From positions 8,865 through 72,864 of the forward strand of contig JBBTTD010000002.1 in assembly GCA_038064415.1 (NCBI GenBank): a stretch of 64,000 nucleotides of DNA, in the 5' to 3' direction. Below the pieces are notes generated by a model. That model made no database searches. It saw only the letters and a program-made list of their open reading frames with translations, and was not told the DNA's origin. Position numbers and translations under genes: made by a program. Positions within the stretch are counted from its first letter, which is position 1. Each line of letters opens with the position of its first letter. This stretch comes from Patescibacteria group bacterium. GTDB lineage: Bacteria; Patescibacteriota; Minisyncoccia; Phycocordibacterales; PALSA-1337. Below are positions 822 to 63,965 of this stretch, in pieces.

Positions 822-989
822 TTAAACTAAGTCTTTATTAAAATCCTCGTATTTATTTTCTTTACCACACCAAGGACAATACCAGTCCTTTTTTTCTAAA
901 GGTATGTCGCCGACAGTCCACCATTTTTTACAAAATATACAATGAAAATGGTTTAGAATTTCGGTTGATTTTTTACTTATTTTGACCAT
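822..989 (-). CDS. Small zinc-ribbon protein (CxxC...CxxC)
   Basis: ORF in the track, with a likely start at internal Met (MVKISKK, ATG at 987-989). Motifs CIFCKK and CPWCGKE are spaced ~19 aa apart. It overlaps the last ~17 nt of secA in another frame. Confidence 0.35.
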   Translation of the reverse strand: MVKISKKSTEILNHFHCIFCKKWWTVGDIPLEKKDWYCPWCGKENKYEDFNKDLV

Positions 990-3684
990 GACACTTTTTA
1001 TATTTCTTCCCAGATCCGCACGGACACGGATCATTCCTGCCCACTTCCGCTTCTTTTTTAATTAACTGTGAATTATTTGATTCATCACCAGCGCCAATCA
1101 TTTGAGCATTTTCATGAACTTCTTTGAGATTTTTTTGTTCAGAATCAACGGGCATGCCATTTACCATCGGAACTATGTGTGGCAAAACTTTGATCACTTG
1201 CGCCTGCATTGCTCCTTGCATTTCTTTGAAAAGGCGTAAACCTTCTTTTTTATATTCAACTAATGGATCACGCTGGCCGTAAGCGCGTAAATTGACGCTA
1301 GAACGAGTATAATCCATGACTTCTAGGTGTTCCACCCAATACATATCAATGGCTTGCAGAAGCACAATCCTGACCGCATTTAGGAAATCTTCACGACCGA
1401 ATTCGGCGATTTTTTTATTGATAATTGAATTGATGTCGGGCGTGGTTGGTGAAAGCGAATCCGAAGGACGCTTCGGAGCGAGCGAAGGCGAGTGAGAACC
1501 AGACGCGGCGCGAGCACGCACCGACGGCGTGTCCTGAGGAACGCTTTCACCAACCACGTCTGTAAGTTCATTCAACTCTTCTTCTACATCATCAGCATTT
1601 CCAAGTAATAATTTTCGGCGTCGTGAATAAATACTGGTTCGCTGATGGTTGATAACATCATCAAATTCCAAAACATGTTTGCGCGAATCAAAGTTAAATC
1701 CTTCAATTTTTTCTTGAGCGCTTTCCAATGAACGAGAAATTAACTTATGCTCAATCGGAACATCATCAGCCGCGCCAAGTTTGCCCATCATGGTTTTCAA
1801 CATGTCAGAAGCAAAAACACGCATCAAAGTATCTTCAAGCGAGACGAAAAATTGCGTCTCGCCAGGATCACCTTGACGACCCGAACGACCACGCAACTGA
1901 TTGTCAATTCGGCGTGCTTCATGTCTTTCGGTTCCAAGAACAAATAATCCACCTGATTTTTTAATTTCAATATATGTTTCAGAAGTATTTGGGTTTCCGC
2001 CAAGCTTGATGTCCACTCCACGACCCGCCATGTTTGTGGCAATTGTAACCGCGCCCTTTTTACCAGCTTGAGCGATAATTTCACCTTCACGCTCATGGTT
2101 TTTGGCATTGAGCATTTGATGAGGAATACCTTCAGATTTCAAAAATTGCGAAAGTAATTCATTTTTTTCAATGGAGACCGTTCCAATCAATACTGGTTGA
2201 CCCTTGGCGTGAAGTTCTTTGACTTTGCGAGCAACAGCTTTGAATTTACCAAGTTCTGTCTGAAAAATCTGGTCATTACTGTCAATACGAATTTGCATAG
2301 CATTCGTCGGAACGACAAAAACTTCCAACCCATAGACTTTATAAAACTCTTCTGAAGAGGTTGCCGCCGTACCTGTCATTCCAGCTAATTTTGGATACAT
2401 TCTGAAAAAGTTCTGAAATGTAATTGAGGCGTAAGTCCGTGATTCTTGCTGAATACTTACTCCCTCTTTGGCTTCAATCGCCTGATGCAAACCATCAGAC
2501 CAACGACGACCTGGTTGCATGCGTCCAGTAAACTCATCAACAATGACGATTTGATTATCTTTGACAACATATTCTTTATCTTTATTGTACAAAGCTTGGG
2601 CCTTTATGGCGGTCTCCAAATGATGCGCGGATTTGATGCCTCTGTCAGTATAAATATTATCTATTCCCAAAATTTTTTCAGCTTTGGTAATTCCGACTGA
2701 TGTCAGCGAAATTGAGCGATGTTTTTCTTCAACAATGTAGTCTTCATCTTTTTTGAATGATCGGACCATTGCGGCAAACTGTTTGTAGATCGCTTCAGCA
2801 TCACGAGTTGGCGCGGAAATAATTAAAGGCGTTCGGGCTTCGTCAATCAAAATAGAGTCAATTTCATCAACAATCGCGTAGTTTGGTTCACGCTGACGCA
2901 ATTTGTCTGGACTATACTCCAAATTATCTCTCAAATAATCAAAACCAAATTCATTGTTAGTTCCATAGGTAATGTCGGCGGCGTAAGCTTCCCGGCGTGT
3001 ACAAGGTCGCAAAAATTCGTGAACAACTTTGAAAGCGCCGAGTTGGTCGCGTTCAGTATCAAGTTTGTCTTCTTTTGTATCTTTGGGGTTTTGAATTTCT
3101 GGTTTTGAATTTGTCTCGGATTTTGGATTTTGAATTTCAGTCTTATTTTTATGCGCTGGATCATACAAAAATGAAGCCTCATTATTTATCACGGCAACCG
3201 ATAAACCAAGAAAAGAATAGACCTGACCCATCCAGACCGCGTCGCGTCGTGACAAATAGTCGTTTACGGTAACGACATGAATTCCTTTTCCAGTAAGCGC
3301 GTTCAAATATGTCGGTAGAGTCGCCACTAAAGTTTTTCCTTCACCAGTTCTCATCTCTGCGATGGCCCCAGAATTCAAAACCATGCCTCCAAGAAGTTGG
3401 ACATCAAAATGTCTTTGACCCAAGGTCCTGCGCGCCGCCTCACGGACAACAGCGAATGCATCGGGAAGAATCTCATTTAAAATCGCTTCAATTTTTGGAT
3501 CATTGGCTTTCAGATCTAATCTCTTCTTGAATTCATCCGTTTTCGCCCTTAATTGATCATCAGAGAGTGCTTGGATTGTCGCTTCAAGCGCGTTGATTTG
3601 CCCGACAATTGGCTGAAACTGCTTCAAGTTTCGGGTATGTGAATTTCCCTTTAATCTATCCCAAAATGACATAATAAGAGCCAC
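973..3684 (-). CDS. secA: Preprotein translocase ATPase SecA
   Basis: 903 aa. Matches SecA throughout: Walker A (MRTGEGKT), REAYAADITYGTNNEFGFDYLRDN, GRSGRQGDPG, DMYWVEHL, and a C-terminal zinc finger (CPCGSGKKYKKCHG). It carries two unusual insertions (see findings). Confidence 0.95.
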   Translation of the reverse strand: MALIMSFWDRLKGNSHTRNLKQFQPIVGQINALEATIQALSDDQLRAKTDEFKKRLDLKANDPKIEAILNEILPDAFAVVREAARRTLGQRHFDVQLLGGMVLNSGAIAEMRTGEGKTLVATLPTYLNALTGKGIHVVTVNDYLSRRDAVWMGQVYSFLGLSVAVINNEASFLYDPAHKNKTEIQNPKSETNSKPEIQNPKDTKEDKLDTERDQLGAFKVVHEFLRPCTRREAYAADITYGTNNEFGFDYLRDNLEYSPDKLRQREPNYAIVDEIDSILIDEARTPLIISAPTRDAEAIYKQFAAMVRSFKKDEDYIVEEKHRSISLTSVGITKAEKILGIDNIYTDRGIKSAHHLETAIKAQALYNKDKEYVVKDNQIVIVDEFTGRMQPGRRWSDGLHQAIEAKEGVSIQQESRTYASITFQNFFRMYPKLAGMTGTAATSSEEFYKVYGLEVFVVPTNAMQIRIDSNDQIFQTELGKFKAVARKVKELHAKGQPVLIGTVSIEKNELLSQFLKSEGIPHQMLNAKNHEREGEIIAQAGKKGAVTIATNMAGRGVDIKLGGNPNTSETYIEIKKSGGLFVLGTERHEARRIDNQLRGRSGRQGDPGETQFFVSLEDTLMRVFASDMLKTMMGKLGAADDVPIEHKLISRSLESAQEKIEGFNFDSRKHVLEFDDVINHQRTSIYSRRRKLLLGNADDVEEELNELTDVVGESVPQDTPSVRARAASGSHSPSLAPKRPSDSLSPTTPDINSIINKKIAEFGREDFLNAVRIVLLQAIDMYWVEHLEVMDYTRSSVNLRAYGQRDPLVEYKKEGLRLFKEMQGAMQAQVIKVLPHIVPMVNGMPVDSEQKNLKEVHENAQMIGAGDESNNSQLIKKEAEVGRNDPCPCGSGKKYKKCHGQNK
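1441..1558. repeat. GC-rich palindromic element inserted in-frame within secA
   Basis: Perfect 17-bp inverted arms CGTGGTTGGTGAAAGCG (1441-1457) and CGCTTTCACCAACCACG (1542-1558) flank an 84-nt segment of ~65% GC with an inner hairpin CCGAAG-GACG-CTTCGG. It encodes an atypical Ser/Pro/Ala-rich SecA segment (VVGESVPQDTPSVRARAASGSHSPSLAPKRPSDSLSPTTP). Confidence 0.55.
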
Positions 3685-4913: not shown

Positions 4914-5069
4914 AAAAAGTGAACAGGGCGTGTGGGTATTTTTCTGAGACGAGTATGCGATTGGTGCGTCAGTCTATTGTATGGCAAGGCAGACATTCTT
5001 GGCAGACCACGAAATTGGAAGACGAATACGCAGTCTCAGAAAAATACCCACACACCCTGTTCACTTTTT
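4914..5069. repeat. Long near-perfect inverted repeat (37-bp arms, 1 mismatch, 82-nt spacer); candidate structured RNA or MITE-like element
   Basis: Arm 4914-4950 (AAAAAGTGAACAGGGCGTGTGGGTATTTTTCTGAGAC) is the reverse complement of 5033-5069 except for one C/A mismatch. It lies in the GC-richer 426-nt gap between two minus-strand genes. A second hairpin (GATGGCGACGG...CCGTCGCCGTC) sits at ~4822-4880. Confidence 0.6.
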
Positions 5070-49806: not shown

Positions 49807-49859
49807 AAATGTACATTACTACTGTTAAGACAGAAAGACAATGACTGCTCTATATTATA

Positions 49860-49961
49860 CGAGGTATGGTACATGAATTTCATAGGAGTTGTGCTGTATC
49901 ATCAACGAAAGTAATGTGATGGAACAACACAATTCCTATGAAATTCATGTACCATACCTCG
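49860..49961. repeat. Long inverted repeat (34-bp arms, one G-U position, 34-nt loop) in a divergent intergenic region
   Basis: Arm CGAGGTATGGTACATGAATTTCATAGGAGTTGTG (49860-49893) pairs with CACAATTCCTATGAAATTCATGTACCATACCTCG (49928-49961). One position pairs only as G-U, which hints at RNA-level structure. Confidence 0.6.
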
Positions 49962-50008
49962 TATTAAGATGCTTGCGTACTTTCATTCTACAGATTAGAC
50001 TGTTTTGC

Positions 50009-52266: not shown

Positions 52267-53037
52267 ATGAACACCAAAACTCTCTCAAACCGCGCACTTT
52301 CAACTATTAATCAGTATCTTAATTTTAGAGTTGGGACTGCTGTTTGTTCTATTCCCTATTTCAATAACAAAACAATAAAAGCCCGAGCCACTTTGCGTGC
52401 CTATGGTGGAAAAGGTAGTCCAAAAGATATCTTTGAAGAAATTCAAACAATCGCGGTAAAATCTCACGTGAATATTGAATCTCTGACCAATGAGTCACTA
52501 AAAAAAATACTCACGGACAATAATATCGGAATTGATTGTTCGGGTTTTGTCTATTATATACTCAATGCTCAAAGTGAAGAATTGAAAAACGAGACTTTAG
52601 ATAGACGCCTATCATTCGTAAATTGTCACGGACTTATCGGTAAAATCAGATGCTCACTTCGCCCAATTGAAAATTGTGATGTTGGAACTCTAGCTCATGA
52701 CAAAAATAGTCTGACTGTTCCAATTAAAGAAATCTCACCTAGCGATATAATTACGATGATTGGTGATAGTGAAGAAAACGAACACGATCACATTCTCGTC
52801 ATACACCAAGTTGAATACCAAAATTTTATTCCTTGCAAAATTCATTACTCACACGCTGTCGCATATCCTGAAGATGGTATTTATGGTACAGGGATCAGAC
52901 AAGGTACAATTGAAATAGTTGACCCAGATAAATCAATTTCGGAAGCGCGTTGGATTGAAAATAATAAAGAAGGAGTTGCCAATAGGATCTTTATCAGAGC
53001 AACAAAATCGAAAACAGAGATGAGGAGGTTGAGGTAA
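52267..53037 (+). CDS. NlpC/P60-like (papain-fold) cysteine peptidase/amidase family protein, no signal peptide
   Basis: GIDCSGFVYYIL (a catalytic-Cys motif like DCSGLV) and a downstream SDIITMIGDSEENEHDHILVIH (a His partner in the position of GDLVFF...HVGIY). Confidence 0.45.
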   Translation: MNTKTLSNRALSTINQYLNFRVGTAVCSIPYFNNKTIKARATLRAYGGKGSPKDIFEEIQTIAVKSHVNIESLTNESLKKILTDNNIGIDCSGFVYYILNAQSEELKNETLDRRLSFVNCHGLIGKIRCSLRPIENCDVGTLAHDKNSLTVPIKEISPSDIITMIGDSEENEHDHILVIHQVEYQNFIPCKIHYSHAVAYPEDGIYGTGIRQGTIEIVDPDKSISEARWIENNKEGVANRIFIRATKSKTEMRRLR

Positions 53038-53040
53038 TCA

Positions 53041-53197
53041 GGAAGCATGGAATAGTTTGTATTTTTATTGCCGAGGACTGTTTGAACGACTATAAATTGC
53101 TTGATAAAATGCGAATGACGTTTCTAGAGTATTTTATCAAGCAATTTAAGAAGTGAGTTCCGCAGGCACATAAAAATACAAACTATTCCATGCTTCC
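53041..53197 (+). ncRNA. Candidate structured RNA / palindromic element, copy A (nested perfect inverted repeats plus conserved blocks shared with copy B)
   Basis: Outer 28-bp perfect arms at 53041-53068 and 53170-53197. Inner 16-bp perfect arms at 53095-53110 and 53131-53146. Conserved blocks TGCCGAGGACTGTTTGAACGACTA, GCGAATGACG and GAGTTCCGCAGGCAC are shared with 60570-60735 (opposite strand), with compensatory changes in the inner stem. Confidence 0.45.
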
Positions 53198-53235
53198 AAT
53201 CGTAACATTGCCGCACTTCATATTTTCGTGATATC

Positions 53236-54372
53236 GTGTACTTCATGATAACAATCCTAGAAGGTACCGCTGATTTGGCCTATATCATGGGTTTTGCGCT
53301 TATTGGCACGGTAGCGGCATATTTATGGGCGCCACTTTTGATTAAATTCCTGTATCATTTTCACATCATAAAAGGACCAAAAAGTGAGCTCACTATGCTC
53401 GGTTCACATGCATATAAAGCCACTACACCAGTCATGGGCGGACTTCTGGTTGTGATCACTGTCGCGGTAATTACCTATTTTTTCAATTGGTCCAGATCAT
53501 TCACTTATGTGCCAATCGGCGTGATGATCATATCAGCCGCTTTGGGCGCGATTGATGACATCATGAATATTTACGGTAGCGAAAGACGCTCTAGAAAACT
53601 TGGACATATCGTCAATCTGATTAAGATTCACAGAGAACTGAAGATGCGCGTTTGGTACATTATCACTTTTCCTTGGAGCGCGTTCAAACGCATGTCAGTT
53701 TGGTTTGGTTCGCGGACAAATAAAGGAGTTTTTGTCCATGAAAAATTGATTCTGCAATTTATCGCCGGTTCAATCACTGCTTGGTGGATTTATACCAAAC
53801 TCGGACCGGCATGGCATTATATTTATCTTCCTTTTGAAACTGGATTTGACCTTGGTTGGATCATTATCCCAGTTGTTATTTTTATAGTGATGTTCACGGC
53901 AAACGCGGTTAATATCGCCGATGGGATGGATGGCTTGGCTGGTGGAATGTTGATTACGACTTTCAGCGCGCTGACTATTTTGTCTTGGATTAACGGTTTT
54001 GGTGAAATCGCTATTTTAAATGCCACAACCGTCGGAGCATTGGTTTCTTATACTTATTTCAATATCAAACCGGCTAGATTTATGATGGGAGATATCGGAT
54101 CTCTCGGTCTCGGCGCGCTTTTAGCGGTCAACGCCATGGCTATTGGCGAAACTATTTCTCTGTTCTTCCTCGGTTTTATGTTTTATGTTGAAGCCTTATC
54201 GGTGGTCATCCAAGTTGCTTCTAGATATATTTTTGGTCGTAAAGTCTTCAAAATGGCGCCATTACATCATCATTTTGAATTAAAAGGTTGGAGTGAAGAA
54301 AAAACCGTGATGCGATTCTGGGTGGTACATTTTATCTTTGTGGTATCTGGATTTTGGCTGGCGTTGCACTAG
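53236..54372 (+). CDS. mraY: Phospho-N-acetylmuramoyl-pentapeptide transferase (MraY)
   Basis: MraY signatures: DDIMNIYG, NAVNIADGMDGLAGG, GDIGSLGLGA, APLHHHFE. There is an extra cytoplasmic loop insertion relative to typical MraY. Confidence 0.9.
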   Translation: MYFMITILEGTADLAYIMGFALIGTVAAYLWAPLLIKFLYHFHIIKGPKSELTMLGSHAYKATTPVMGGLLVVITVAVITYFFNWSRSFTYVPIGVMIISAALGAIDDIMNIYGSERRSRKLGHIVNLIKIHRELKMRVWYIITFPWSAFKRMSVWFGSRTNKGVFVHEKLILQFIAGSITAWWIYTKLGPAWHYIYLPFETGFDLGWIIIPVVIFIVMFTANAVNIADGMDGLAGGMLITTFSALTILSWINGFGEIAILNATTVGALVSYTYFNIKPARFMMGDIGSLGLGALLAVNAMAIGETISLFFLGFMFYVEALSVVIQVASRYIFGRKVFKMAPLHHHFELKGWSEEKTVMRFWVVHFIFVVSGFWLALH

Positions 54373-57801: not shown

Positions 57802-57809
57802 CAGTGAGA

Positions 57810-57921
57810 AACAAAGCAAGAAGCGGGTGTGAATTTTATGAAAGACTGCAATCTCTTTGCGTGGAACGCGAGACAATTATAACGGTCTTTCATAAAATTC
57901 ACACCCGCTTCTTGCTTTGTT
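57810..57921. repeat. 37-bp perfect inverted repeat (38-nt loop) exactly between convergent stop codons; candidate bidirectional terminator or structured element
   Basis: Arm 57810-57846 (AACAAAGCAAGAAGCGGGTGTGAATTTTATGAAAGAC) is the perfect reverse complement of 57885-57921. It is flanked by the PALP gene stop at 57799-57801 and the murD stop at 57930. Confidence 0.6.
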
Positions 57922-57929
57922 ACTATTTC

Positions 57930-59786: not shown

Positions 59787-60521
59787 TTAATAGTCCGCAC
59801 TTATACTTACAAATGCGTCTTTGGTGATGATGACATGATCTAAAACACGAATGCCCAGGATCTTCCCTGCCTGAACAAGCTGTCTGGTAATTTGAATATC
59901 TTCGGCACTTGGAGTAACTTCACCCGAAGGATGATTGTGAGCTAAAATAACTGCGACAGCATTGCGTTCAATGGCTGGACGAAAGACTTCGCGAGCATGA
60001 ATAACATTGGCATTGACTGTCCCAATTGAAATAACTTCGTCAGCAATCACGCGGTTGTGACTATTGAGATACAATCCACGAAGATGTTCTTTGGGTAAAT
60101 TGCGCATATCAACGAGATAGTCATACGCGTCTTTGGCGTTACGAATTGTCTTGAATCCCGAATCAGAGCGCTGATATAAACGCCTTCCTAGTTCACCTAC
60201 GGCAACAATAGAACACGCCTTGACGATCGGTATGTTTAACTCTTTGGATAATTTCTCGGGATTACATTCGGCGAAAACGCTTTTCTCGCCATATTCACGA
60301 ACAATGCGCGTGGACATCTCCAAGACATCTTCTTTGGTAGTCCCAGTTACAAGCAGAAGGGTTGTAAGCTCCGCAATAGAAAGCGACTCTGGACCGTGAG
60401 TCAAGAGTTTTTCTCGTGGCTTCTCGCTCGAAGGCAGGTCCCGAAACATGAGTGGGTACTCACGCGGGCTCCGATCAAGAATGAGCGTGGTATCGGGTAT
60501 GATGTACATGCTCTTCTGCAT
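59787..60521 (-). CDS. radC: RadC-family JAB/MPN domain protein
   Basis: JAMM motif ILAHNHPSGEVTPSAEDIQIT, an HhH-like N-terminus, and a C-terminal LDHVII. Confidence 0.85.
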   Translation of the reverse strand: MQKSMYIIPDTTLILDRSPREYPLMFRDLPSSEKPREKLLTHGPESLSIAELTTLLLVTGTTKEDVLEMSTRIVREYGEKSVFAECNPEKLSKELNIPIVKACSIVAVGELGRRLYQRSDSGFKTIRNAKDAYDYLVDMRNLPKEHLRGLYLNSHNRVIADEVISIGTVNANVIHAREVFRPAIERNAVAVILAHNHPSGEVTPSAEDIQITRQLVQAGKILGIRVLDHVIITKDAFVSISADY

Positions 60522-60569
60522 GAAAACAATTATAACATAGTGAGAGAAAAATCAAGAAAAAGAAACCTG

Positions 60570-60735
60570 ACAAGGTATGCATTTTTATGTGCCTGCGGAA
60601 CTCGCTCCTGAAATTTCTAGGTAAAAGGCTCAGGAATTACTCAAATCTTCGACTTGGTAATTCCAACGCCATTCGCCTTTTACCAAGAAATTTCTAGTCG
60701 CTCAAACAGTCCTCGGCAATAAAAATGCATACCTT
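60570..60735 (-). ncRNA. Candidate structured RNA / palindromic element, copy B (opposite strand to copy A)
   Basis: Outer 18-bp perfect arms at 60570-60587 and 60718-60735. Inner 19-bp arms have one mismatch. An extra internal hairpin GGAATTAC...GTAATTCC is present. In minus orientation it shares TGCCGAGGACTGTTTGAGCGACTA, CGAATGGCG and GAGTTCCGCAGGCAC with copy A. Confidence 0.45.
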
Positions 60736-60757
60736 GCCGAGTTTCTTTAGCTTTTTA

Positions 60758-63892: not shown

Positions 63893-63965
63893 TGCGCGCA
63901 CTAGGATTCGAACCTAGGACCCCACCAGTATCAGTGGTGTGCTCTACCAACTGAGCTATGCGCGC
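63893..63965 (-). tRNA. tRNA-Ile (anticodon GAT)
   Basis: The reverse complement folds as a cloverleaf: acceptor GCGCGCA/TGCGCGC, D-arm GCTC-AGTTGGTA-GAGC, anticodon arm CACCA-CTGATAC-TGGTG (anticodon GAT, A37), variable loop GGGTC, T-arm CTAGG-TTCGAAT-CCTAG, discriminator A. No CCA is encoded. Confidence 0.85.

Follow-up and report, generated by a model that had tools for sequence, protein, structure and literature searches.

Two long hairpins in a Patescibacteria genome share a core that recurs in at least seven phyla and may be a mobile structured module

Two long hairpins lie between housekeeping genes in the DNA of a groundwater Patescibacterium that is near Candidatus Taylorbacteria. 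Their interiors agree and their outer stems do not, which raises the question of whether such an element is a selected RNA structure, a mobile piece of DNA, or both. An earlier note on this DNA had recognised the pair and had argued for a selected structure. Throughout, the window means the whole stretch of DNA that was analysed, 64,000 nucleotides in length. The two hairpins are called copy A and copy B. Each is built from two outer arms (P1), a 5' core block, an extended inner hairpin (P2), and a 3' core block, at the following positions.

53041..53197, plus strand: copy A, whole hairpin, from sequence, fold, and covariance-model match
53041..53068, plus strand: copy A, P1 5' arm, 28 nt, in perfect pairing with 53170-53197, with the end ATTTTTAT
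53069..53092, plus strand: copy A, 5' core block TGCCGAGGACTGTTTGAACGACTA
53093..53148, plus strand: copy A, extended P2, an 18-bp perfect stem and a 20-nt apex with GCGAAUGACG
53093-53110 / 53131-53148, plus strand: copy A, the two perfect strands of the P2 stem
53111-53130, plus strand: copy A, P2 apex with GCGAATGACG
53149..53169, plus strand: copy A, 3' core block AGAAGTGAGTTCCGCAGGCAC
53170..53197, plus strand: copy A, P1 3' arm, 28 nt
60554..60753, minus strand: copy B, whole hairpin including the imperfect outer part
60571-60588 and 60719-60736, minus strand: copy B, perfect 18-nt arms
60719..60753, minus strand: copy B, P1 5' arm, proximal 18 nt perfect and the remainder imperfect
60695..60718, minus strand: copy B, 5' core block TGCCGAGGACTGTTTGAGCGACTA
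60610..60694, minus strand: copy B, extended P2, a 20-bp stem with one mismatch and an apex with GCGAAUGGCG
60589..60609, minus strand: copy B, 3' core block AGGAGCGAGTTCCGCAGGCAC
60554..60588, minus strand: copy B, P1 3' arm

The 5' block of copy A runs in the order U, GCC (P1a), GA, GGA (P1b), CUGUUUGA, A (closing P2), and CGACUA. Its 3' block runs AGAAG, U (closing P2), GAGU, UCC (P1b'), GCA, GGC (P1a'), and AC. The apex of copy B has an additional small hairpin that is not present in copy A. There are exactly two occurrences of the 5'-block 17-mer TGCCGAGGACTGTTTGA in the 64 kb, where 0.10 are expected (two or more were seen in 0 of 100 shuffles). The 15 nt of the 3' block that are shared exactly also occur exactly twice in the window. 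Folding, which the earlier note had proposed, gave energies of -78.1 kcal/mol for copy A and -91.7 kcal/mol for copy B; both are 11-13 SD better than dinucleotide shuffles (z = -13.0 and -11.1, respectively). When the window is searched with a covariance model of the core, copies A and B alone are found (64.2 and 62.9 bits), and the next match has 11 bits. Compensatory changes between A and B were recovered in P2 by an independent RNAalifold run, at the closing pair (A-U/G-C) and then at three further pairs (U-A/G-C, A-U/G-C, and U-A/G-C). The sequence check and this run bear out the architecture, the shared blocks, and the compensatory inner-stem changes as they had first been described. The coordinates given for copy A were exact. 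Copy B had been placed at 60570-60735 and extends slightly past these limits, to 60554-60753, as its arms continue beyond the perfect 18 nt with 86% complementarity.

Copy A starts 3 nt past the stop codon of the open reading frame 52267-53037 and ends 38-47 nt ahead of mraY. Copy B follows directly on the pyk stop codon (60758), and 33 nt separate its end from radC, which starts at 60521. The genes beside copy A encode a hypothetical protein and a Glycos_transf_4/MraY protein, and those beside copy B encode pyruvate kinase and RadC, which confirms the flanking genes mraY, radC, and pyk as named before; Mur ligases are also among the neighbours. The copies have opposite orientations at a distance of 7.4 kb, and each matches local transcription. 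Each sits in sense orientation between a stop codon and the TATAAT-like box of the next gene, which lies 7-8 nt ahead of the ATG and is kept in relatives. The GC skew of the window tracks gene orientation and is uninformative on the replication strand.

Given this position, the hairpins could be taken for ordinary intrinsic terminators or chance palindromes whose shared blocks have no special meaning. Both copies do stand at gene 3' ends, and a T-rich tract follows copy B, whose stem is 35 bp long and A+T-rich. The window also contains further long near-perfect hairpins at gene ends that lack this core. An intrinsic terminator, however, is a short, G+C-rich hairpin with a U-tract behind it. 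Copy A has no U-tract, and a terminator scan made no call at either element (counts from promoter and terminator scans of the window were at background level). An ordinary terminator would also leave unexplained that the two copies have blocks of 17 and 15 nt in exact agreement, which recur across phyla with covarying helices, and that relatives do without the element. This explanation is already contradicted by the family-level data given below, and we consider it highly improbable.

No family was found by Rfam 15 at the gathering threshold in the window or in 16 loci. Relaxing the limit to E ≤ 10 for the long, short, permuted, and large forms yielded only spurious miRNA-type hairpin matches far below threshold. 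The earlier impression that no known RNA family motif is recognisable thus holds even at this permissive setting. Searches of a library of papers by sequence words (the core blocks) and by topic returned nothing matching; the nearest topic was TIGR-Tas. Apparent likenesses to domain IV of 23S rRNA (ACUGUUUA, AAGUUCCGACCUGCAC, and CGAAUGGCG), and others to 5S rRNA, 6S RNA, SRP RNA, the K-turn, and the sarcin-ricin loop, are in each case short enough for chance and carry no weight here. A viral or plasmid origin was rejected: IMG/VR contigs contain no full copy, with 16-mer and 15-mer matches that lack the partner block and are due to chance, and copy A is unmatched among PLSDB plasmids. The element lies outside every known family tested and fails the defining tests of REP/Correia-type hairpins and of small ribozymes.

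The core is nevertheless widespread. The exact 17-mer of the 5' block was searched in one genome per GTDB species and gave 62 matches, about half of which also have the 3' block at the right distance. In the confirmed copies, the hairpin that separates the blocks and the helix that encloses them both vary. Dozens of copies in at least seven phyla were found, so that the description as a two-copy family was wrong, and the further homologous copies on which the earlier reading depended do exist. Carriers include Saccharibacteria, Peptococcaceae, Phascolarctobacterium, Fusicatenibacter, Desulfobacterota/'delta' (Syntrophorhabdales), two Gammaproteobacteria, Acidobacteriota (Edaphobacter), Hydrogenedentota, and Bdellovibrionia. 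The common core can be written as (U)GCC-GA-GGA-CUGUUUGA-[G..P2..C]-GAGU-UCC-G[optional P3]CA-GGC(A), in which the 5' block is invariant partly because the scans were made with exact 17- or 20-mers.

This core occurs as simple hairpins, as circularly permuted forms with tetraloop caps, as three-way junctions, and as long rods with a core on each strand. A metagenome scan that targeted the long form gave L128, on a contig of the Hainich metagenome, which is 92% identical to copy B inside. The same scan gave short forms (L127, L134), a three-way form (L130), and the permuted class. Permuted copies (L133, L135, L138, L129, and L132, as well as L072, L069, and L086) have the order stem-AAAGCGAGUUCCGCAGGC-tetraloop-GCCGAGGACUGUUUGAGCGACU-stem, with P1 capped (GUAA, UUAA) and P2 open. 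GNRA caps are present in the family, and in several lineages P2 is capped by GNA triloops of the GCGNAGC type. An optional hairpin between UUCC(G) and CAGGC is seen in Peptococcaceae variants, in L130, and, by comparison with the ortholog L065, in L114. L092, L117, L120 (Bdellovibrionia), L136, L073, and L097 each have a pair of cores with opposite polarity, either in one rod of about 300 nt or at most about 200 nt apart. Single genomes can hold several copies: one Peptococcaceae MAG has at least nine near-identical copies and one metagenome has three permuted ones, and the arms are conserved within such bursts. One repeat of about 300-650 bp is common to Phascolarctobacterium and Fusicatenibacter, which belong to different classes.

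In the fold of the core, P1a (3 bp, GCC/GGC) and P1b (3 bp, GGA/UCC) are separated by a GA//GCA internal loop. P1b and P2 are joined by an internal loop of 8x4, CUGUUUGA//GAGU, in which tandem sheared G.A pairs could form beside P2. P2 is a variable hairpin and forms, in the Taylorbacteria-like lineage, a long rod with its own conserved apex. Covariation was assessed for P1a, P1b, and the first 5 bp of P2 (11 pairs) in an alignment of 29 diverse copies of standard topology. Pairing is found in 86% of the cells compared with 75% in column shuffles (none of 500 was as high) and 31-50% after a shift of the partner by 1-3 columns, and 8 of the 11 pairs show double-sided changes; many of the rows are related, and the copies were ascertained with the exact 5' block. 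P1a occurs as GCC/GGC, GUC/GAC, GGC/GCC, CGC/GCG, and GAU/AUC, the last of these in a Bdellovibrionia copy. In the divergent copy L148, P1a has changed from GCC/GGC to GUC/GAC and P1b from GGA/UCC to GAA/UUU. The same helices were predicted independently by RNAalifold, and a covariance model made from the 29-copy alignment gave 27 matches of at least 32 bits among the collected loci. Covariation supports helices P1a, P1b, and P2. The original view that a secondary structure is selected on one strand, and that this is not a transposon family with conserved TIRs, is supported. Selection of the core as a folded single strand with fixed polarity belongs to the explanation that we find best, and shares with it a probability slightly short of even.

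Comparison of related genomes shows that the element comes and goes. The spacer between pyk and radC is empty in five relatives (L139, L140, L152, L155, and L156), where it measures 33-55 nt and contains no hairpin; the pyruvate kinase identity of these relatives is 82-86%. The spacer before mraY is likewise empty in L146 (39 nt), and L148 has at the same site a divergent copy with different arms that overlap the upstream stop codon. The close relative of copy B, L128, sits upstream of hisS and not behind pyk, and its arms are unrelated to those of copy B. The earlier note had set mobility against selection at the RNA level; mobility is in fact shown by this pattern of presence and absence. 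No target-site duplication is evident by inspection of the flanks of A and B against the empty sites; the sole repeat noted is a 4-nt AATC at A, in non-adjacent positions.

Permutation tests found no significant similarity among the distal arms of A, B, L128, and L148 (A vs B, p 0.26-0.66). Homology of the arms of A and B was considered and rejected: right-justified, they have 19/28 matches, yet the permutation tests are not significant. The statement that the outer stems differ completely was therefore correct in that no significant similarity exists, but the difference did not come from compensatory substitution, as B compared with L128 and the empty sites show. Since sites are empty in relatives, and since B and L128 are nearly the same inside and have unrelated arms, the arms are locus-specific and were made or acquired at or after insertion. 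On the explanation that we find best, A and B are two insertions of one member of a large multi-phylum family of mobile hairpins.

For copy B, an origin of the arms can be suggested. In L139, one of the relatives with an empty site, the spacer sequence GAAAAATCAAGAA directly behind the pyk stop codon is the reverse complement of TTCTTGATTTTTC in the 3' flank of copy B, which is carried by the 3' arm and adjoining bases to about 60546. The best match of this spacer to the reverse complement of the flank is 13/13, a score reached in 2 of 5000 shuffles. The 5' arm of copy B also resembles the ancestral spacer behind the pyk stop codon, of which it is the counterpart. Judging from this one locus, the arms of copy B apparently are an inverted duplication of the 5' flank. 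No source was found in the collected sequences for the arms of A and L148, nor was a source of arms found elsewhere in these sequences. A phage tape-measure gene matches 21 nt of one arm exactly, which is compatible with chance. Phage-derived arms were rejected, as 1 of 6 20-mers matched this gene where roughly 0.1-0.3 would do so by chance, which is not evidence. A pre-existing terminator hairpin as the target of copy B is also made less likely by the five empty sites, which have no hairpin.

An unrelated hairpin is present in the same pyk-radC spacer in L144. Because the window has other long perfect hairpins without the core, the long stems may be a property of the genome and not of the element. 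These genomes may tend to grow palindromes in general.

It is harder to say whether RNA or folded single-stranded DNA is the form in which the selected strand acts. Interior G.U pairs number 68 on the core-sense strand vs 44 on the other (9 vs 2 in L133), and the sense fold is the more stable in 17 of 24 cases; this bias is modest, is not significant in a sign test, and would equally fit a folded ssDNA strand. Rods of double polarity lie between convergent genes in all four cases with clear gene calls (L092, L117, L120, and L073), so that each transcript would carry one sense core. Copies A and B, L148, and L128 are all co-oriented with the downstream gene, and the first three of these stand directly behind a co-oriented stop codon. 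In the wider family the upstream neighbours show no orientation preference (11 co-oriented vs 9 divergent, from crude gene calls). This counts against a strictly cis-acting 3'-UTR role, which should show a bias. The core also has traits that resemble those of RNA, namely a non-palindromic sequence with fixed polarity, GNRA-capped permutations, an optional helix, and the G.U excess. From these patterns in the sequence we infer that the selected strand probably acts as RNA rather than ssDNA.

The main rival explanation is a non-autonomous DNA element in the style of REP/REPIN, PATE, or MITE, with a conserved, asymmetric core that is recognised on folded ssDNA and an RNA structure that is a by-product. 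The enzyme could conceivably be trans-encoded and single-strand-specific, such as a Y1/HUH transposase or another recombinase. The presence/absence polymorphism at two loci would fit such an element, as would the bursts of near-identical copies with conserved arms within single genomes, the 300-650-bp repeat common to Phascolarctobacterium and Fusicatenibacter, the lack of orientation bias relative to genes, and the paired or nested copies on opposite strands. GNA triloops of the GCGNAGC type are very stable DNA mini-hairpins, and in L150, a related Taylorbacteria genome, 2.3 kb separate a Y1_Tnp gene from the mraY site. However, Pfam found no transposase among the ORFs flanking A and B (about 49.9-63.9 kb), no integrase was found among their neighbours, and a tblastn search with the L150 Y1 transposase fragment, covering the 64-kb window and the surroundings of the other copies examined, gave no relative. 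Inspection of the flanks shows no recognisable target-site duplication, and the terminal repeats are not conserved, as the arms differ. The loops are near-identical across phyla, unlike those of the species-specific REPs. RNA motifs typically have GNRA-capped permutations, an optional helix, and an excess of G.U pairs on the sense strand, as seen here. The specific placement of double-polarity rods between convergent genes, and the opposite orientation of A and B in step with local transcription, also speak against a DNA element. We regard this explanation as possible but doubtful, for the element and for its enzyme alike.

A further explanation is that the conserved loops form the active site of a new class of small self-cleaving or self-ligating ribozyme, placed in a hairpin cassette. 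On either side of about 28 nearly invariant nucleotides, which are unpaired or in short helices, the helices vary freely. Circular permutation and an optional third helix occur naturally in hammerhead and twister too, and the element is dispersed, multi-copy, and found across phyla with no conserved neighbour gene, the flanking genes of the copies being unrelated housekeeping genes. In our own reading, CUGUUUGA-[stem]-GAG recalls the hammerhead half CUGANGA-[stem II]-GAA with its tandem G.A pairs. No Rfam 15 ribozyme family is matched at E ≤ 10, though, and the element is a two-way junction in which the cleavage-site strand and stem III of hammerhead are absent. A role in docking a protein or RNA would account for the same conservation. 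A ribozyme of this kind appears unlikely. Equally unlikely is the broader proposal that the core is a new catalytic or scaffold RNA cassette, either a self-cleaving or self-ligating ribozyme or a protein scaffold with guide-like arms templated by the flank or by foreign sequence.

The explanation that we prefer, with tentative confidence and at nearly even chances, is a mobile structured module that is selected as a folded single strand, probably RNA, and has locally made arms. The inherited unit would be the interior (P1a, P1b, the two internal loops, and P2), and the outer helix would be produced locally. Copies A and B would be co-transcribed as the 3' end of the upstream mRNA, given their sense position behind a stop codon and ahead of the promoter-like box of the next gene. 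The stem of 28-35 bp would be a very stable 3' structure and a natural substrate of RNase III, and could serve as a 3'-end or RNase III stalk. A cut by RNase III in this stem would free the core-bearing hairpin from any host transcript, which would explain why long perfect stems, independent of sequence, accompany the core at every landing site. The two conserved internal loops would be the docking site of a conserved partner or a catalytic centre. Of this explanation, the anatomy, the family with its topological variants, the covariation, the insertion polymorphism, the locus-specific arms, and the absence from Rfam are shown by the data above; the RNA form, the co-transcription, the RNase III processing, the origin of the arms, and a partner or activity are proposals.

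A core of about 30 nt that is near base-perfect from Patescibacteria to Proteobacteria and is absent from Rfam suggests a strong constraint, which could come from a universal partner or from an intrinsic activity. The usual logic of bacterial hairpin repeats is reversed here, with a conserved interior and arms that are made to measure. The element is also a tractable case for how long perfect palindromes arise at insertion sites. As minimal forms have only about 55 nt, assays of cleavage, binding, and RNase III processing are immediately feasible. A catalytic core would represent a new class of ribozyme, and a core that docks a protein would mark an RNP shared by ultra-small parasitic bacteria and gut anaerobes.

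The element can be compared with several known systems. REP, BIME, and REPIN (mobilised by RAYT) and the PATEs derived from IS200/IS605 are likewise short, non-coding, intergenic, hairpin-forming, multi-copy, and polymorphic for insertion. In REP-type elements the structure of one strand matters, as it does here, and such elements frequently form part of transcripts at gene 3' ends and there make the upstream mRNA more stable. REPs, however, have a stem conserved within a species and a GTAG-type head, whereas the present family keeps its loops across phyla and has outer stems specific to each locus. REP/REPIN systems have a Y1 (RAYT/TnpA) gene in the genome; here tblastn gave no relative of the L150 Y1_Tnp fragment in the 64-kb window or in the other loci. 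To our knowledge, permuted and three-way variants do not occur among REPs.

Hammerhead and twister as dispersed elements have in common with this one a compact core, variable helices, permutations, and optional helices, together with a patchy spread across phyla and often no fixed gene partner. Hammerhead is a three-way junction with CUGANGA, GAAA, and a cleavage-site strand, whereas the element here is two-way and has CUGUUUGA...GAG only. With a limit of E ≤ 10, the hammerhead model matched none of the four forms (long, short, permuted, and large).

MITEs of the Correia, ERIC, and RUP type are co-transcribed and cut by RNase III in Neisseria and enterobacteria, which affects the fate of the mRNA. 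A long hairpin inserted in an mRNA is the proposed likeness to the present element. Those MITEs have conserved TIRs and target-site duplications and are limited to one genus or family; in our case the arms are variable and the interior is conserved. The element departs from a MITE or TIR transposon in that terminal repeats are not conserved between A, B, L128, and L148, and agrees with one in its presence/absence polymorphism. An integron attC site, which has conserved R''/R' core sites at the stem base, was rejected, since the pattern is reversed here (variable base, conserved interior) and there is no integrase among the neighbours. The suggestion that the structure might be retron-like found no support, and a retron ncRNA was rejected: no reverse transcriptase is present among the neighbours of A or B, which are the hypothetical protein, MraY, RadC, pyruvate kinase, and Mur ligases.

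Repetitive hairpin-forming elements of organelle genomes, such as the sponge mitochondrial RHE, are reported to be mobile, hairpin-forming intergenic insertions with no coding capacity (PMC2800124). They belong to another domain of life, and are not known to have any sequence in common with this element. TIGR arrays consist of tandem stem-loops, with variable-spacer loops flanked by boxes of 2-3 nt, beside a Tas gene with a Nop domain (PMC12045711). These box C/D-like guide RNAs resemble the present element in their occurrence in parasitic bacteria and in their hairpins with palindromic variable stems around loop motifs (PMC12045711). A TIGR array was nonetheless rejected, as the copies here are solitary, their loops are conserved, and no Tas (Nop) gene is adjacent. 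By analogy with these systems, the element may work somewhat like the co-transcribed hairpins of the REP and Correia type, and looks somewhat like a small ribozyme motif.

The conserved ~30-base core of the mobile hairpin family to which copies A and B belong also occurs within larger structures. At four comparison loci, in delta-type, Nitrospira-like and Acidobacteria MAGs, it forms part of a larger, conserved structure that extends over ~170 nt:

L068, 3330-3540
L078, 6860-7060
L071, 150-350, - strand
L112, 2090-2300

This architecture has an additional 5' hairpin and, judged by eye, possibly a pseudoknot. It had no match in Rfam. The core is also enclosed in a non-coding repeat of ~300-650 bp that is common to different bacterial classes (L098, L108, L115 and L116 from Phascolarctobacterium; L076, L088 and L113 from Fusicatenibacter and others). 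The ends of this repeat are TIR-like, and a second, degenerate core lies ~250 nt upstream on the opposite strand. Within the window, the sole Rfam match is a tRNA gene (63893-63965, - strand).

The window also contains three long, near-perfect hairpins that lack the core:

49857-49964, arms of 48 nt
57807-57924, arms of 40 nt
4914-5069, arms of 37 nt

The hairpin at 57807-57924 occupies precisely the space that separates two convergent stop codons. This genome appears prone to long palindromes where genes end. In a relative whose pyruvate kinase is 81% identical (L144, 3920-4080; also L145), the pyk-radC spacer is occupied, as it is by copy B in the window, by a hairpin unrelated to the core element, with a 30-bp near-perfect stem and an interior of ~54 nt.

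A TATAAT-like (TGn-extended) box is located 7-8 nt before the starts of radC and mraY (~60522-60545 and ~53205-53245, respectively) and is kept at the same sites in relatives (L139, L140, L142, L152, L155, L156, and L146), suggesting that both mRNAs are leaderless. Compared with its counterparts in relatives, the ORF preceding copy A is shorter by two codons at its 3' end (53029-53037). The ancestral ...TGG TCA TGA has become ...TAA TCA, so that copy A begins at the position of the ancestral stop codon. In a Taylorbacteria genome, the following gene is found at a distance of 2.3 kb from the mraY site, a site that does not carry the core element there:

L150/L151, 1-222, - strand, Y1_Tnp (IS200-like/RAYT-like) gene

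The 5' arm of L128 (3565-3585), a metagenomic relative of copy B with unrelated arms, has an exact 21-nt match in the IMG/VR contig L157 (8431-8451), within a phage tail tape-measure gene. Searches with five other element arms gave no match. As roughly 0.1-0.3 such matches are expected by chance, this one is probably a coincidence.

A further palindromic segment is located inside a coding sequence, secA (973-3684, - strand):

1441-1558, 118 nt, in frame within secA

Its inverted ends of 17 nt are perfect, and its GC content is 64%, compared to 42% for the gene. It codes for a 40-aa low-complexity stretch (DVVGESVPQDTPSVRARAASGSHSPSLAPKRPSDSLSPTT). The segment resembles in-frame palindromic insertions of the Rickettsia RPE kind.
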